Below the pieces are notes generated by a model. The model saw nothing but the letters and a program-made list of their open reading frames with translations. It did no database searches and was not told the DNA's origin. From assembly GCA_050251055.1 (NCBI GenBank), contig JBFWNL010000005.1, forward strand, positions 160,001 through 224,000: a stretch of 64,000 bases of DNA, read 5' to 3'. The position numbers were made by a program, and so were the translations under genes. Source of the stretch: Bacteriovoracia bacterium (GTDB lineage: Bacteria > Bdellovibrionota > UBA1018 > JBFWNL01). Shown here piece by piece: positions 21,706 through 26,777 of this stretch (positions are counted from its first letter, which is position 1; each line of letters begins with the position of its first letter).

Positions 21706-22089
21706 TCACCCTTTGGTCCGGATGCCTTCTTTCTCAAGTAAGCCGCGGATTTGGTCGCGTTTATCGCCTTGGATTTCGATCAGGCCTTCTTTACCTTCCA
21801 TCGAATAGGTCCCGCCGGTCCCGCACTTCTTCTTGAGTAGCGTGGTTAGATCTTTTAGGAAGAGGATGTTCTTGGGCAGATCGTCGATCACGGTGACCGT
21901 CTTGCCGCCGCGGCCTTGCTTTTCGATCCTGAGCTTGGCCACGAAGTTATACCTCCCGCTGTTTTCGGACTTCGTGGGCGTGGCGGCCTGGGGTGGGCAG
22001 CGGCATTCGGATTGGACCTCTTTGCAGCGGTCGCATTTCCGGTTCTGGGCGGGGTCGGTCGAGTAGACCAAACGGCGGTCGGAGCTCAT
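21706..22089 (-). CDS. yciH: SUI1/YciH translation initiation factor family
   Basis: LVYST; GRGGKTVT; LKKKCGTGG; IEIQGD. Confidence 0.9.
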   Translation of the reverse strand: MSSDRRLVYSTDPAQNRKCDRCKEVQSECRCPPQAATPTKSENSGRYNFVAKLRIEKQGRGGKTVTVIDDLPKNILFLKDLTTLLKKKCGTGGTYSMEGKEGLIEIQGDKRDQIRGLLEKEGIRTKG

Positions 22090-22135
22090 GACCTTGTTCT
22101 TGTCAAATTTCGGAGAAACCCGCAAACTCAAAGCC

Positions 22136-22801
22136 ATGCGGCACCACCCCGATAACCAGCGAATTCCCTGCCTGCGTTGCCGTAAATCCCCCCGTACTTG
22201 TTACTGCCACCTCTTGCGGCCGTTTCGGTCCTCGACCCAGTTCGTGATTTTGCAACATCCCAAGGAGCGTCGCAAAGCCATCGGAACCGCCCGCATGGTC
22301 CATCTGTCGATGGAGGGCTCGGAGCTGCGGGTGGGGAAGGAGTTTGATGACGACCCGGTGGTGAGCCAGTACCTGAAGGACGAGAGTCGCCATTGCGTCG
22401 TGCTCTTTCCAAGCGAGCGTTCAGCGAACTTAAGCACCGCGCGAGAGGCGGGGGAGTTGGACCGATGGATTCCGCCCGGCAAGAATCTCGTGGTTTTCGT
22501 GCTCGATGGTACCTGGACCCAGGCCAAGCGCATCTTGGAGCGGAGCCTGAAGCTCGCGCGCTTGCCCCAGGTCTGCTTTACGGTTCGTGAGAAATCACAG
22601 TACCGGATCCGCCAACAGCCTGAAGATTATTGCCTTTCCACCTTAGAGGCGGTCACCGAAGTATTGAATATCTTGGAGACCGGCGCTCCCGTCGAAAACC
22701 TGACCCAGGTTTTTCATTCCATGGTAGAGACCCAGCTAGGATTTTCTGCCTATGTCAAAGCGCCCGCCTCAATCCCGAGCCCTGCCCCAGCAGCCTTATG
22801 A
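22136..22801 (+). CDS. DTW-domain tRNA-uridine aminocarboxypropyltransferase
   Basis: C..C....C.C; QHP.E; LFP; DGTW; LSTLEA. Confidence 0.9.
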   Translation: MRHHPDNQRIPCLRCRKSPRTCYCHLLRPFRSSTQFVILQHPKERRKAIGTARMVHLSMEGSELRVGKEFDDDPVVSQYLKDESRHCVVLFPSERSANLSTAREAGELDRWIPPGKNLVVFVLDGTWTQAKRILERSLKLARLPQVCFTVREKSQYRIRQQPEDYCLSTLEAVTEVLNILETGAPVENLTQVFHSMVETQLGFSAYVKAPASIPSPAPAAL

Positions 22802-23612
22802 CGAGCTGCTCTTGAAGCGGAGTCGCCTCTATCGGCGCTCGCGCGAACTTTACCGCGCGCAAGGGGGAACCTTCGAGGCCGCGCTTTGGTCCTCGCCTCG
22901 CAGCCTGGGTTCGCCTTTGTTGCTCGAAAACCATATTGGCTATAGCCCATTGGGTGCCGAGCTCGAGTGGTCGCTCACGGACCGCTTGCAGAAGCGCGAA
23001 AAAAAGCATCTGGAACAGGTGCGCTCCTTCGTGACGAACGTATTTCATGAGCAGAGCCATCGCATCCTGTGGCGCCATTTCCGGGAAGCGGGGATTGCGT
23101 GCCCGCAGTCGCGTGAGGAAGCCTTCCGTTTTTTGAATCTGGTTGAAGCGTTGGTGGTGATCCTGGATATGGCGCTCGGCGATGATCTGGGAATGCGCGT
23201 GGCGCGTCCGCTGTATGGGTTGGGGGTCGTTTATAATCCTGGCTCGACTTTCATGAGCCCGCGTAAGCTAGGTCCGCGCGGCTATCGCAATGCTTTACAG
23301 GTAGCGCTCCACGCGACTTACTTGCGACTCGAAGGTATGCACGCCGACGATATTCCCGGCGCCGTGCGGGCCGCTTTCCCAGGGCTGAGCCCGAAGTTAG
23401 TGGATGCGGCGACTCGCCGCGCGCTTTTGATTGAGCCGCTCTTCGTGGAGCTGACGAATCCCATTTGGCAAAAACGCCACGTGAAGGTGGTCATGCGCGA
23501 GTGGGCGCCTCGAAGGGGAGCAAAGCCGCTACGGCTGCCGCATCGGAAGCCCACCGAGAATCACCAAGCCTATCTCATCGCGGAAACGTGGCTCGCGAGG
23601 TTCGGGCTATGA
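22752..23612 (+). CDS. Hypothetical HExxH protein
   Basis: FHEQSH...VEALV; overlaps both neighbours in an operon-like way. Confidence 0.7.
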   Translation: MSKRPPQSRALPQQPYDELLLKRSRLYRRSRELYRAQGGTFEAALWSSPRSLGSPLLLENHIGYSPLGAELEWSLTDRLQKREKKHLEQVRSFVTNVFHEQSHRILWRHFREAGIACPQSREEAFRFLNLVEALVVILDMALGDDLGMRVARPLYGLGVVYNPGSTFMSPRKLGPRGYRNALQVALHATYLRLEGMHADDIPGAVRAAFPGLSPKLVDAATRRALLIEPLFVELTNPIWQKRHVKVVMREWAPRRGAKPLRLPHRKPTENHQAYLIAETWLARFGL

Positions 23613-24205
23613 AGCGCGGATCGGACCCCCGCAAGATGACGGAAGTCACGCCGGAAGTGATCATCGAACTGTTTGACCGTACGTTTCTCGCCTCGACGAA
23701 CACGCGCTTGCGCGGGGGCTTTCCGGAGCCGATCTACCTACCCGAGCAGGCACCGGGGCCGGCGGAAATCCGCTTTACGCGCGACTATCTCCGCAGTGCG
23801 CTTCACGAAATCGCCCATTGGTGCATTGCCGGGGCCGCGCGGCGGCGCGAAGTAGATTATGGGTACTGGTATCGTCCGGATGGACGCAATGCCGCAGAGC
23901 AGATGGAATTCTTTCGTATTGAAGTGAAGCCGCAAGCAGTCGAGCTTGCGTTCTCGCGCCGGATCGGAGTCGACTTCCAGGTGAGCTGCGACAATCTCGA
24001 CGGGGTGGTGCCCGCGCACGGAAGCTTCACGGAGAAGGATTTCGCGGCTCTGGTGGATCGGCAGCTCGCCGACTTTGAGCGGGATGGGTTTCCTCCGCGC
24101 GCGCGGATTTTCCTGGATGCGCTGGAGATGCGGTGGAGACGCGCTGGGTGCGTTGAGAATTCCGAGAGCATCGGAAGCTGGATTAACGGTCGCCGACCGA
24201 GCTGA
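23609..24205 (+). CDS. epmC: Elongation factor P hydroxylase
   Basis: EP.YLP; SALHEIAHWC.AG..RR..DYGYWY.PDGR; EVKPQA.E; S.DNL. Confidence 0.92.
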   Translation: MKRGSDPRKMTEVTPEVIIELFDRTFLASTNTRLRGGFPEPIYLPEQAPGPAEIRFTRDYLRSALHEIAHWCIAGAARRREVDYGYWYRPDGRNAAEQMEFFRIEVKPQAVELAFSRRIGVDFQVSCDNLDGVVPAHGSFTEKDFAALVDRQLADFERDGFPPRARIFLDALEMRWRRAGCVENSESIGSWINGRRPS

Positions 24206-26252
24206 ACTGCGGATGGGCCAGGATCGCGGCCTCGAACTTTTCTCGAACGCTCGCCCCGTCCTTTAAACCAACGGGGAATTTCGCGTTGCTCTTCTGCCAA
24301 CGCGACAGCCACTCCGGTCCCAGTAGGCCTGGTCCCGGACGCGTGAATGCCATCGTGGTTTCCGCCTTGGGACCGGTTGAAGCCCCGGCACCGACGAAGA
24401 ATCCCGCCGAGAGCAATCCCGCGCGGACGGCGGTTGAATTGGAATAAGTGAAGAGTTCCACCGCCCGCTCCGAGCAGCGATCGAAGAGCTTCGCGAAAGC
24501 AGCGGGGGTCCACAACGCGGAGTCCACCCGCGGTGAAAATGGATCATAGAATATCAGATCGGGGGGGGGGAGGACGCGTTCCCCGCGTTCTGCCTCGTCG
24601 AGATGCATTAGGAAGTCACCCGTGTGCAACTCCCATTGGAAGTGGCCTTCGCCGGAGGCCCAGCGCCCGTCTTTCAGTAGATAATGAGGAGCCGAATGCC
24701 AAAGATGCGGAAACAGAATCTGGTGTTTGAGCGCCAAGCGCAGGGGATCCAGGTCGATCTCGAAGCTGACGATCTTCAACGGACGGGTGCCGACCACGCC
24801 CTTCGCCTTGAGAACGCGCTCGTAAGCCTGTACCGCCGCCATGGCGTTCGTTGCCGCGCCCAGGCCTACGTCCCAGATCACGAGCGGGGCGGACGTGCCT
24901 TCGGGGCCCTTAGATTCCGGCTCGACGTCCGCTAAGCGTTCAGCCAGGCGGGATTGCTGGACATAGAGGCGATTGGCTTCTTCCGTCGGGTCGCTCACCG
25001 AATGCATCACTTCGCCGGAGCTGATTTGTCTCACGCTGGCGAAAGTTTCCGATTCTTGGATTTCGTAATTACCCAGGCGTAGCACCCGCGGCGCCTTCTT
25101 GGGCGGCCTACGCACTGATTCTGGCAGGTGGTCGGTATCGACGCGCACGAGGGTCTCGCGCTGGCGACGGTAGTATTCGGAGAATGTGCCGTCCAGGATC
25201 GCCGAACGCATTTCTCGCATCAATCGATGATAGAAATGAATGTTGTGGGTGCTGACTAAAGTCCAGCCCAGGGGCTCGTATGCCTTATGTAAGTGATGGA
25301 GGTACGCGCGCGAGTACTGCTCGCAGGTTGGGCAATCGCAATCCGGATCGAGCCCCGCTTCGTCGAACTTGTAGTCCGAGCGTTTGAGCTGCAGCTTGCC
25401 CCTCGAGGTGAAGGCCACGCCCTGCTGGGCAAACGCCGAAGGAATGATGCAATCGAACATATCCACGCCGCGGTGGACGGCTTCTAGGATGTCGATGGGC
25501 GTACCCACGCCCATGAGGTAGCGGGGAAGGTTGCGCGGCAACAAAGCGGCGGTCGCTTCGCAGAACTCTTCGCGCTGTCCCTTGGTTTCGCCGACCGCGA
25601 GTCCCCCGATGGCGAAGCCATCAAAAGGGAGCTGGGTCAGGAAATCCACGCTCTGTTTGCGCAGGTCGTGAAAGCAGGCGCCTTGGGCGATGCCGAACAT
25701 CGCTTGCGGCGAGTCACCGCGCGCATCTAGGCTTCGTTTCGCCCAGCGGTGGGTCAGCTCCATCGCGGCGATCGCTTCCGGCTTGCCCGCCGTGGAAGGG
25801 ATACACTGATCGAGCACCATCATGATGTCACTGCCGATGGCTTTTTGCATTTCGATGCTTGCTTCGGGCGACAGCAGGTAAGTGTCACCGTCCACGTAGC
25901 TTTGGAAGCGCGCGCCGTCTTCGCTCATCTGCCGCATGTCATGGAGCTTGAAGATCTGAAAACCGCCCGAGTCCGTGAGCACGGGTCCGTCCCAGTTCAT
26001 GAAGCGGTGGATACCTCCGAACTTGCGGAATACCTCCGGTCCCGGGCGCAATAGCAGATGATACGTGTTAGCGAGCAGGATACGTGATCCCGCCGCGCGA
26101 AGTAAATCCACGCTCTGGCTCTTCACCGTTGCCTGGGTGCCCACCGGCATGAAAATAGGGGTGAGCACTTCTCCGTGCAGGGTTTGAAAGCGTCCGGCCC
26201 GGGCGCGGCTGCCCGGGGCTTCGGCTTCGAGCTGGAAATTCAAGCGGGACAT
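24183..26252 (-). CDS. tgt: tRNA-guanine transglycosylase fused to an MnmC/MnmD-type methyltransferase
   Basis: FMPVGT, NTYHL, DSGGFQ, GGLAVGE, C.C..C...H; C-terminal DVGLGAATN, SFE, DPFSP...LW, TYS. Confidence 0.93.
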   Translation of the reverse strand: MSRLNFQLEAEAPGSRARAGRFQTLHGEVLTPIFMPVGTQATVKSQSVDLLRAAGSRILLANTYHLLLRPGPEVFRKFGGIHRFMNWDGPVLTDSGGFQIFKLHDMRQMSEDGARFQSYVDGDTYLLSPEASIEMQKAIGSDIMMVLDQCIPSTAGKPEAIAAMELTHRWAKRSLDARGDSPQAMFGIAQGACFHDLRKQSVDFLTQLPFDGFAIGGLAVGETKGQREEFCEATAALLPRNLPRYLMGVGTPIDILEAVHRGVDMFDCIIPSAFAQQGVAFTSRGKLQLKRSDYKFDEAGLDPDCDCPTCEQYSRAYLHHLHKAYEPLGWTLVSTHNIHFYHRLMREMRSAILDGTFSEYYRRQRETLVRVDTDHLPESVRRPPKKAPRVLRLGNYEIQESETFASVRQISSGEVMHSVSDPTEEANRLYVQQSRLAERLADVEPESKGPEGTSAPLVIWDVGLGAATNAMAAVQAYERVLKAKGVVGTRPLKIVSFEIDLDPLRLALKHQILFPHLWHSAPHYLLKDGRWASGEGHFQWELHTGDFLMHLDEAERGERVLPPPDLIFYDPFSPRVDSALWTPAAFAKLFDRCSERAVELFTYSNSTAVRAGLLSAGFFVGAGASTGPKAETTMAFTRPGPGLLGPEWLSRWQKSNAKFPVGLKDGASVREKFEAAILAHPQFSSVGDR

Positions 26253-26270: not shown

Positions 26271-26777
26271 CTACTTACGGAACGGCATTTCTCCCAAGTA
26301 GTCTTTCTTGCCCACGTCCACGCCGTTGTGGCGCAGGATGGAGTAAGCGGTCGTGAGGTGGAAGTAAAAGTTCGGGATCGCGTGCTGAGTGAGATACTCC
26401 GCGCCGTTCAGCCACTTGCCTTCCCAGCGGGGTTGGCTCACCTTGCGCTCTTCGGCACCCTGAAAGTCGGCGGCCGTGAGCGAATTCAGGTAGCTGATGG
26501 TGCTCTCGATACGCGCCTTGAGTTCAGCCAAGGTCTTTTCCTTATCGTCATGCGACGGCGCCTCTTTGCCGGTGAGTCGGGAGCAGCTGAGCTTGGCGGT
26601 GTCGCAAGTGATCTGCACCTGGCGGATGAAATTGAATTGATCCGGGGCTAGGCGCGCGTTCATGAGCACCTCGGTGTCGAACTTCTTGGTTTCGGCGTAA
26701 AGGGCGCCTTTGCTCAAAATAGCGTTTAAATTCCGTAACATCTTCGTGTATTGCGGGACGGTCAGTTCGTAGTACAT
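26271..26777 (-). CDS. DUF1993 family protein
   Basis: RLAPD; PNFYFHLTTAYSILRHNGVDVGK.DY. Confidence 0.92.
   Translation of the reverse strand: MYYELTVPQYTKMLRNLNAILSKGALYAETKKFDTEVLMNARLAPDQFNFIRQVQITCDTAKLSCSRLTGKEAPSHDDKEKTLAELKARIESTISYLNSLTAADFQGAEERKVSQPRWEGKWLNGAEYLTQHAIPNFYFHLTTAYSILRHNGVDVGKKDYLGEMPFRK

Follow-up and report, generated by a model that had tools for sequence, protein, structure and literature searches.

A second tRNA-guanine transglycosylase lineage joined to an MnmC2-like methyltransferase, and its possible role in making N-methylated preQ1 in RNA

What might a bacterium do with a second tRNA-guanine transglycosylase (Tgt) to which an amine methyltransferase is attached? 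Tgt is regarded as an enzyme with one gene copy and one purpose, and queuosine and its derivatives are, to our knowledge, the only 7-deazaguanine modifications described in bacterial RNA. The question is raised by a gene in a stretch of 64,000 nucleotides (the window; positions 160,001 to 224,000 of contig JBFWNL010000005.1, assembly GCA_050251055.1) of a Bacteriovoracia bacterium of the Bdellovibrionota. An earlier note on this DNA had described a complete Tgt continuing in frame into a domain of roughly 300 amino acids (aa) that uses S-adenosylmethionine (SAM), and the gene is indeed one open reading frame (ORF) of 689 aa in which every motif quoted there is found at its place. As judged from its residues, the protein combines an apparently intact transglycosylase (Tgt2) with a pocket of the preQ1 (7-aminomethyl-7-deazaguanine) type and an apparently intact amine methyltransferase of the MnmC2 kind, both being extra copies in the cell and nearly always fused to each other. 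Our best reading, to which we give a probability of about 0.4, is that preQ1 would be inserted into RNA and then N-methylated, probably at a non-canonical site.

The fusion gene and its transglycosylase half

The fusion is a single open frame with an ATG start, and this start codon is taken to be right because the N-terminus MSRLNFxLEA is the consensus in 59 aligned homologues. Its parts are listed below, with residues numbered in the fusion and single equivalents in the numbering of Zymomonas mobilis Tgt or of MnmC.

24183..26252, minus strand: whole fusion ORF, 689 aa plus stop (Tgt2, linker, MnmC2-like methyltransferase)
25143..26252, minus strand: Tgt2 domain, residues 1-370, TIM-barrel transglycosylase with a zinc subdomain
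25962..25973, minus strand: DSGG, residues 94-97, D94 being Z. mobilis D102 by alignment to 1ozm; D and S invariant in 150/150 fusions
25587..25607, minus strand: GGLAVGE, residues 216-222 (G229 G230 L231 A232 V233 G234 E235), pocket of the bacterial preQ1 type; L, A, V and E invariant in 150/150 fusions
25419..25454, minus strand: DCIIPSAFAQQG, residues 267-278, with the nucleophile D267 (D280), then V282I, R286A, R289Q and N290Q
25323..25340, minus strand: CDCPTC, residues 305-310, with three zinc-site cysteines; C305, C307 and C310 invariant in 59/59
25245-25247, minus strand: H336, fourth zinc ligand; invariant in 59/59
25071..25142, minus strand: inter-domain linker, residues 371-394, basic (RRPPKKAPR at 381-389) and predicted to be disordered
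24186..25070, minus strand: MnmC2-like SAM-dependent methyltransferase domain, residues 395-689, 295 aa, with the C-terminal end HPQF
24846..24872, minus strand: DVGLGAATN, residues 461-469, SAM-binding motif I; D461, G463, G465 and N469 invariant in 59/59 fusions and in 53/53 sequences of the domain alignment
24531..24548, minus strand: YDPFSP, residues 569-574, catalytic motif IV (MnmC D178-G179-F-x-P182, with Gly changed to Pro); D570, F572 and S573 invariant in 59/59

The motifs DQC, SFE and TYS..VR.GL..AGF lie at residues 148-150, 496-498 and 602-618. Both halves are recognized by protein family models: Pfam TGT (PF01702) covers residues 16-365 with 476.3 bits (cut-off 26.3), the NCBIfam Tgt equivalog TIGR00430 gives 444.4 bits, above its cut-off of 306.75, and Pfam Methyltransf_30 (PF05430) covers residues 532-636 with 52.2 bits (cut-off 22), while the NCBIfam MnmC2 model NF033855 reaches 60.9 bits over residues 413-635, under its cut-off of 136. 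In the fusion, Pfam found only TGT and Methyltransf_30; the DUF3109 (DpdM) fold with its CxxxCxxCC motif was not found there. An AlphaFold2 model built from 59 sequences has a mean predicted local distance difference test score (pLDDT) of 91.5 and a predicted template modelling score (pTM) of 0.66, residues 377-386 falling below a pLDDT of 50; in this model, both domains are well folded and a flexible basic tether connects them, without a fixed interface being predicted.

The transglycosylase half aligns to the Tgt of Z. mobilis (1ozm and others) at about 46% identity (E 1e-109), which is the source of the standard numbering. Across 150 fusions (the window protein and 149 others), the residues D102, S103, D156, C158, Q203, G229, G230, L231, A232, V233, E235, Y258, M260 and D280 are invariant. 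The catalytic pair is present as D94 and D267, and the zinc site as C305, C307, C310 and H336, which correspond to Z. mobilis C318, C320, C323 and H349. Because the catalytic and pocket residues are invariant in 150/150 sequences and the zinc ligands in 59/59, Tgt2 looks catalytically competent, with a tight pocket of the bacterial preQ1 type. In the structural comparison with the PDB, which covers residues 1-370 of the fusion model, the RNA-bound Z. mobilis enzyme 1q2r_A is matched with Z 54.3 and a root-mean-square deviation of 1.6 Å over 371 residues.

Beside the nucleophile, the residues of Tgt2 that line the ribose-34/phosphate-35 region are consistently unlike those of housekeeping Tgt. 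The unusual reading of the segment D-C-V-x-P-T/S-R-x-x-R-x-G had already been remarked on in the window protein, where A273 and Q276 stand in place of the R286/R289 pair, and it proves to be a signature of the whole family: V282 is replaced by Ile in 150/150 fusions, position 286 holds Gln, Ala, Ser or, once, Lys, and position 289 holds Gln, Glu, His or Ser, with Arg at either of the two positions in 0/150 fusions versus both arginines in 31/31 housekeeping Tgts. All 21 standalone Tgts from fusion-bearing genomes (21/21) have V282, R286, R289 and N290, and both arginines are kept in 10/10 single Tgts from other genomes of the phylum; as a family-defining pair, R286 and R289 are based on the sample of 31 Tgts and the Z. 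mobilis sequence. The two arginines presumably contact the RNA near nucleotide 35, as is reported for the 2003 complex of the Z. mobilis enzyme.

In a tree of 92 Tgt domains (FastTree, which gives local support only, as for the methyltransferase tree below), a single branch with 100% local support divides 61 Tgt2 domains (56 fused, 5 unfused) from 31 housekeeping ones. Mean pairwise identity amounts to 64.8% within Tgt2, which was drawn from many phyla, 53.3% within the housekeeping group of one phylum and 43.6% between the groups, and the identity of Tgt2 across phyla thus exceeds that of housekeeping Tgt within a single phylum. With this split and a separate 386-aa Tgt on contig C1 of the same genome, Tgt2 is not the housekeeping copy.

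Compared with the bacterial Tgt of the Z. mobilis/E. coli type, Tgt2 shares the fold, about 46% of residues, the catalytic Asp pair, the zinc site, the preQ1 pocket and the equivalog score. It differs in forming a paralogue clade of its own, present alongside the housekeeping Tgt, in its C-terminal methyltransferase, in its patchy distribution and in the changes G69A, V282I, R286Q/A, R289Q/E, N304R and R332H; altogether, 16 positions are conserved within but differ between the two groups, including G69A, V282I, R289Q, N304R, R332H and M240R. Tgt has also been duplicated, with diverged roles, in the eukaryotic pair QTRT1/QTRT2, and both of these match the Tgt half; QTRT2, however, is a non-catalytic partner without a methyltransferase, whereas Tgt2 keeps all catalytic residues. 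As an observation in its own right, many genomes of families f18 and f15 carry a pair of standalone Tgt-like genes, each of normal length (e.g. G009:C1:1550090-1551127 and G009:C1:2241458-2242522), with about 405 and about 350 bits to housekeeping Tgt; by score, neither gene belongs to the Tgt2 type, and the pair is apparently another, independent Tgt duplication.

The methyltransferase subfamily, its carriers and their companion genes

A search through all of 1.84 billion representatives with residues 395-689 (the METHYLTRANSFERASE half) yielded 1327 proteins at E <= 0.001, of which 213 had E <= 1e-30. The best 150 domain relatives are a mixture, some being full-length fusions and others fragments or proteins of about 270-310 aa. 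Ten relatives extend further at the N-terminus by about 100-240 aa; nine of these are truncated Tgt fusions and one has an AMIN domain, which makes Tgt the one partner that recurs in this methyltransferase family. The AMIN-bearing relative (P0245, 504 aa) may be a different fusion or an artefact of gene calling. Conserved in the family alignment are SGE.MH, DVGLGAA.NA (SAM motif I), SFE.D, FYDP(F/Y)SP, TYS.ST.VR.ALL.AGF and, at the C-terminus, W..RW.RS...HPQF.

How far this domain resembles MnmC2 can be read from the residues that matter in MnmC. There, E101 and D178 are described as critical for SAM binding and methyl transfer, and conservation in the bifunctional enzyme exceeds 98% at F67, G69, G70, D178, G179 and P182 (PMC3648344). 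The equivalents of E101, D178 and P182 are kept in the fused family (SFE, D570 and P574), and Gly179 is not, being Pro571 in the window protein and mostly Pro in the family (motif DPFSP versus DGFxP). Sequence matches in the PDB are the MnmC2 protein 3vyw (E 7.6e-7) and YfcK, 2qy6 (E 9.4e-5). In the ESM Atlas, the domain has template modelling (TM) scores of 0.90-0.91 to its own family, in fused and 286-aa standalone forms, and of 0.66-0.73 to clusters of the MnmD/MnmC type over residues 395-639/664; because the latter match covers this range only, the last ~50 residues are taken to be family-specific. The MnmC2 model gives 52-73 bits, below its cut-off of 136, for 9/9 standalone relatives, and in genome searches with the domain as query, members of the family score at least 85 bits and genuine MnmC2/MnmD proteins at most 43 bits. 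The Pfam match, the 3vyw and 2qy6 matches, the TM scores, SAM motif I, the acidic residue and D-x-F-x-P are thus shared with MnmC2/MnmD, whereas the score under the equivalog cut-off, the score gap in genomes, the change of Gly179 to Pro, the extra conserved C-terminal residues and the co-existence with a bona fide MnmC2 are not. On these grounds, the fused domain is a distinct Methyltransf_30 subfamily and not the cell's MnmC2.

The closest precedent in architecture is bifunctional MnmC itself, in which an MnmC1 oxidase and an MnmC2 methylase carry out consecutive steps on a wobble side chain within one polypeptide, with MnmC2 finishing (PMC3648344). The partner in the fusion, however, is a base-exchanging transglycosylase versus the flavin adenine dinucleotide (FAD) oxidase of MnmC, the domain order is reversed, with the methylase at the C-terminus, and the domains are tethered, whereas MnmC has a defined interdomain interface (PMC3648344).

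In a FastTree phylogeny of 130 domain sequences, with the MnmC2 of the window's own genome as root, all 57 fused copies fall in clade A (99%, 83 rows), which also contains the two standalone copies of G132, that of G097, a single G145 copy and 22 sequences of metagenomic origin, fragments of fusions among them. Clades B (99%, 26 rows) and C (97%, 16 rows) contain standalone proteins only. The standalone members of about 270-300 aa in clades B and C (loci L153-L163 and L166-L171) come from genomes with only a canonical Tgt, and in some cases (G035, G096) they are found beside a bona fide MnmC. A cluster in the Atlas numbers 751 members, most commonly from Myxococcota.

The fusion itself is widespread. 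In a collection of 5.8 billion proteins, 120/120 of the matches listed have both Pfam domains, with identities of 60-67% over 94-100% of the query; 'Tgt' is their only annotation, and their records belong to Oligoflexia/Bdellovibrionota and Opitutaceae/Verrucomicrobiota. When one genome per species was scanned with an alignment of the C-terminal domain, at least 585 relatives were confirmed, and among the best 80 of these, which were examined, Tgt and methyltransferase share one frame at 78 loci, the other two ORFs starting at a contig edge. The carriers among these best 80 are recorded as Oligoflexia, Opitutae, Chthoniobacterales, Kiritimatiellia, Lentisphaerales, Binatia, Sulfopaludibacter, Syntrophobacter, Steroidobacteraceae, Riflebacteria, Eisenbacteria and cultured Leptospira (L. 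ilyithenensis, L. adleri, L. ognonensis and L. ainazelensis), and by record titles the fusion spans at least eight phylum-level groups. It is present at full length in 35/151 genomes sampled from its own phylum, the window genome included, and in 8/41 genomes of a sample of the genus Leptospira; five more of the 151 (G087, G127, G122, G132 and, at a contig edge, G097) have the same type of Tgt unfused. Many of the sampled genomes are metagenome-assembled genomes (MAGs), so absence here means not found in those searched. The fusion gene is a patchy accessory gene across many phyla. An assembly artefact absent from relatives had been named beforehand as something that would undo the case, and since 120/120 listed matches and 78 of the best 80 loci share the one-frame architecture, the fusion is no such artefact and lies far beyond chance.

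Whether genomes with the fusion also encode the canonical enzymes had been proposed as a check, and they largely do. The window's own genome, which is 93.5% complete, encodes, apart from the fusion, a 386-aa Tgt with DCVLPTRNARNG and a 682-aa MnmC, plus QueA, QueG, QueF and QueC. A separate Tgt is found in 45/47 carriers examined: in 33/35 carriers of the phylum sample (housekeeping Tgt as query, E <= 1e-100), in 4/4 carriers of other groups and in 8/8 Leptospira carriers. In the remaining two, G073 and G109, no separate Tgt passed E <= 1e-100, which does not show absence. In two of the four carriers from other groups, the MAGs G153 and G155, the standalone Tgt appears as two adjacent matches (G153:C8:1145338-1146409 and G155:C17:50309-51347), and the second match of G153 holds one TGA; a frameshift, a pseudogene or an assembly error is possible. 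A strong gene of the MnmC2 type (109-132 bits) is present in 41/41 Leptospira genomes, to which 8/8 carriers add the fused domain (40-63 bits). In the phylum sample, a second Methyltransf_30 match of at least 76 bits exists besides the fusion in 10/35 carriers, the fused copy is the only match in 4/35 (G091, G046, G022 and G120), and the rest have weaker members.

The pathway to preQ1 is usually at hand as well. QueF exceeds its cut-off in 40/41 Leptospira genomes, including 8/8 carriers, and in 33/35 carriers versus 99/116 non-carriers of the phylum sample; QueA and QueF were each found in 5/5 carriers of family f12. The presence of QueA and QueF fits preQ1 as substrate and hardly discriminates. 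Of the five genomes with an unfused Tgt2, 4/5 (G087, G127, G132 and G097) have a methyltransferase of the family at another place in the genome, and the standalone methyltransferases of G132 and G097 fall in the fused clade A.

Proposed activity and its rivals

The simplest coupled reaction is preQ1 insertion plus N-methylation, because preQ1 and 5-aminomethyl-(2-thio)uridine, nm5(s2)U, share the CH2-NH2 group that Methyltransf_30 methylates; in both, it sits on the major-groove edge of a position-34 base. SAM-dependent N-methylation of the aminomethyl group of a wobble base is the only characterised activity of Methyltransf_30 (PMC3648344). The fusion would accordingly act as a bifunctional RNA-modifying enzyme alongside the ordinary machinery for queuosine and 5-methylaminomethyl-2-thiouridine (mnm5s2U), not replacing it. 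Tgt2 would swap a guanine in RNA for preQ1, with D267 as the nucleophile and within the unchanged bacterial preQ1 pocket, after which the C-terminal half would add a methyl group to the aminomethyl nitrogen of this preQ1 to give 7-(methylaminomethyl)-7-deazaguanosine. As a secondary amine, the N-methylated preQ1 may no longer be a substrate of QueA. Which base is inserted, which group accepts the methyl, in what order the steps run and at which RNA site are the parts of this reading that we infer.

The target guanine is probably not, or not only, the G34 of the U-G-U tRNAs used by housekeeping Tgt. A target outside U-G-U is suggested because the Arg pair is lost and the pocket floor beside the nucleophile is changed, and since the RNA-facing signature residues differ, position 34 of GUN tRNAs is not secured as the site. 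The window's own genome has 4 GUN tRNAs and 11 other G34 tRNAs, and candidate sites may be these 11, other positions or other RNAs. The more exacting proposal, that the fusion makes 7-(methylaminomethyl)-7-deazaguanosine, new to RNA, at a guanine untouched by the housekeeping Tgt, be it in another G34 tRNA, another position or another RNA, is possible if somewhat doubtful. The same proposed logic and base product, preQ1 insertion followed by amine methylation, are met in phage DpdA2 plus DpdM (PMC10516641). The phage system, however, acts on DNA with separate genes, DpdA is a distant Tgt relative whose profile the fusion does not match, and DpdM is a DUF3109 metal-cluster protein and not a Rossmann-fold SAM methylase (PMC10516641).

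Several observations weigh against insertion and methylation of preQ1 by the fusion. The full-length AlphaFold2 model has no confident docking of the two domains, and ORF clustering revealed no neighbour common to more than 10 of 80 fusion loci. QueF was not found in 2/35 carriers, G073 (97% complete) and G022 (91%), and it does not discriminate in any case, because it is almost as common in non-carriers. The separate methyltransferases that accompany the unfused Tgt2 of G087 and G127 belong to clade C or a separate small clade, not to clade A, and in G122 (92% complete), which has Tgt2, no member of the methyltransferase family was found. Conversely, 11 sampled genomes in which no sequence of the Tgt2 type was found have standalone members of the methyltransferase family, and in 10 of these (all but G041) the only Tgt has both arginines; their standalone copies belong to the two standalone-only clades, plus one clade-A member (G145). 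The methyltransferase family must therefore have some role independent of Tgt2. Finally, G132 (95% complete, about 280 contigs) has an unfused Tgt2 and two standalone clade-A methyltransferases on other contigs (C43, C46 and C123), and the Tgt2 type is the only Tgt found, a canonical one not having been found in it; this would fit a Tgt2 able to serve as sole Tgt.

Coupling might also serve a different chemistry, in which both halves act on the same RNA and the acceptor is not the aminomethyl group of preQ1 (e.g. the exocyclic amine of a neighbouring base), or a base other than preQ1 is inserted. The conserved fusion argues for coupling as such, the replacement of Gly179 by Pro and the family-specific C-terminal ~50 residues point to an acceptor site not identical to that of MnmC2, and standalone family members without Tgt2 are in keeping with this too. 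The D-P-F/Y-S-P motif is one that we take to be of a general amino-methyltransferase type. Yet aminomethyl methylation is the one activity characterised in Methyltransf_30 (PMC3648344), the preQ1-type pocket L231-A232-V233-E235-C158 is invariant in 150/150 fusions and QueF is present in most carriers, and we regard such a chemistry as unlikely. The earlier note had offered as its alternative two independent wobble pathways in one polypeptide, a Rosetta-stone fusion whose Tgt half makes preQ1-34 in GUN tRNAs and whose methyltransferase makes mnm5s2U34 elsewhere. Each half is indeed homologous to a position-34 enzyme, the architecture is listed among MnmC2 fusions in genomes with MnmA, MnmG and MnmE (bioRxiv 10.1101/2023.12.21.572861), the fused domain is the sole Methyltransf_30 match in the four carriers named above, and the only Tgt found in G132 is of the Tgt2 type. 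Two such activities would, however, be redundant in most carriers, and they are disfavoured because carriers keep ordinary tgt and mnmC2 genes (45/47 have a separate Tgt, 8/8 Leptospira carriers a strong MnmC2 and the window's own genome a full MnmC); in addition, both halves fall in clades distinct from the housekeeping enzymes, the MnmC2 score stays under its cut-off and the Arg pair beside the nucleophile is lost in all fusions, which leaves this alternative with a small chance at most.

The order of events could be reversed, with the methyltransferase acting on free preQ1 or another small amine and Tgt2 inserting the methylated base. E. coli TGT is described as highly promiscuous towards preQ1 derivatives (PMC13416341; PMC9561289), and a flexible tether without docking is compatible with such an order, but known MnmC2 enzymes use tRNA-bound substrate and have basic RNA-binding surfaces (PMC3648344). 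A fusion would moreover be of little advantage for a diffusible intermediate. The residues V233 and C158, which shape the pocket and are enlarged in enzymes that take the bulkier queuine, are unchanged in Tgt2, and methylation ahead of insertion is, on balance, very improbable. A role in DNA, where preQ1 would be placed and methylated to mdPreQ1 for self-marking or defence, has in its favour that mdPreQ1 exists in phage DNA (PMC10516641) and that loss of the RNA-facing arginines could mean a changed nucleic acid. We rejected this DNA or phage reading, as neither PADLOC DpdA (no match at E <= 0.01, against a weak match of E 1e-4 for housekeeping Tgt) nor PHROG matches the fusion. The Tgt equivalog score is above its cut-off, the 80 loci have no defence-island context or conserved neighbour, and DpdM, the methylase of the phage system, is a DUF3109 metalloprotein with a different fold (PMC10516641), all of which makes modification of DNA scarcely credible. 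Insertion of preQ1 followed by its N-methylation, as the earlier note had proposed, is plausible on the residues conserved, is still alive and is the best reading left.

Genomic surroundings and significance

The window neighbours of the fusion are DUF1993, EpmC, DTW, SUI1 and MAPEG genes, and they are not informative because no neighbour is conserved at 80 fusion loci, the most frequent one being an ABC-F-like protein at scattered positions in 10 of them. Nor did 20 loci of standalone methyltransferases have a neighbour common to more than three. The features next to the fusion are as follows.

21706..22137, minus strand: SUI1/YciH-like gene
22088..22801, plus strand: DTW-domain protein
22752..23612, plus strand: ORF of 286 aa with no assigned family
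23465..24205, plus strand: EpmC elongation-factor-P hydroxylase
26271-26777, minus strand: DUF1993 gene, 194.5 bits

Positions 21706-24205 thus form a translation-related run beside the fusion, an arrangement that does not recur at 80 other fusion loci. The 3' end of the EpmC gene overlaps that of the fusion by 23 bases in convergent orientation. The DUF1993 gene lies on the strand of the fusion and ends 18 bases upstream of the fusion start; the two may be co-transcribed, and DUF1993 is not a conserved neighbour elsewhere. On another contig of the same genome, a second, divergent QueA homologue of 393 aa (G000:C5:15147-16325; L006 1474..2655, minus strand) adjoins a short-chain dehydrogenase gene and scores 165 bits to Pfam Queuosine_synth versus 396 bits for the canonical QueA on C1. 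It was considered as a partner of the fusion and dropped, a close relative being present in only 2/151 genomes (G000 and G076). No RNA data set was listed with the fusion gene; two DNA runs, possibly from the source sample, contain it.

The architecture is already visible in databases, and the fusion is a variant of the Tgt and MnmC2 kinds, not a new category. TGT-MnmC2 is listed in passing in a preprint as one of four 'other MnmC2 fusions', with no function given in the part of the text drawn on (bioRxiv 10.1101/2023.12.21.572861). Full-text literature searches returned no functional study of a fused or second bacterial Tgt of this kind, and for methyl-preQ1 in RNA they returned nothing, the only related paper being that on phage DNA, in which mdPreQ1 is made by DpdA2 and DpdM (PMC10516641).

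What emerges is a strongly conserved second lineage of Tgt, in which the chemistry appears to be kept and the RNA-facing residues are changed, and which is almost always joined to an amine methyltransferase. If N-methyl-preQ1 is indeed made in RNA, a nucleoside would be added to the catalogue of RNA modifications, and the phage DNA base mdPreQ1 would have a counterpart in cellular RNA, the product of an unrelated methylase. Once N-methylated, preQ1 would also be diverted from QueA, and many bacterial phyla would possess a second 7-deazaguanine pathway, independent of queuosine. The fusion would then represent a naturally retargeted Tgt, of interest for site-specific labelling of RNA. If, instead, only known activities are duplicated, the family would still be a useful case of paralogue retention.

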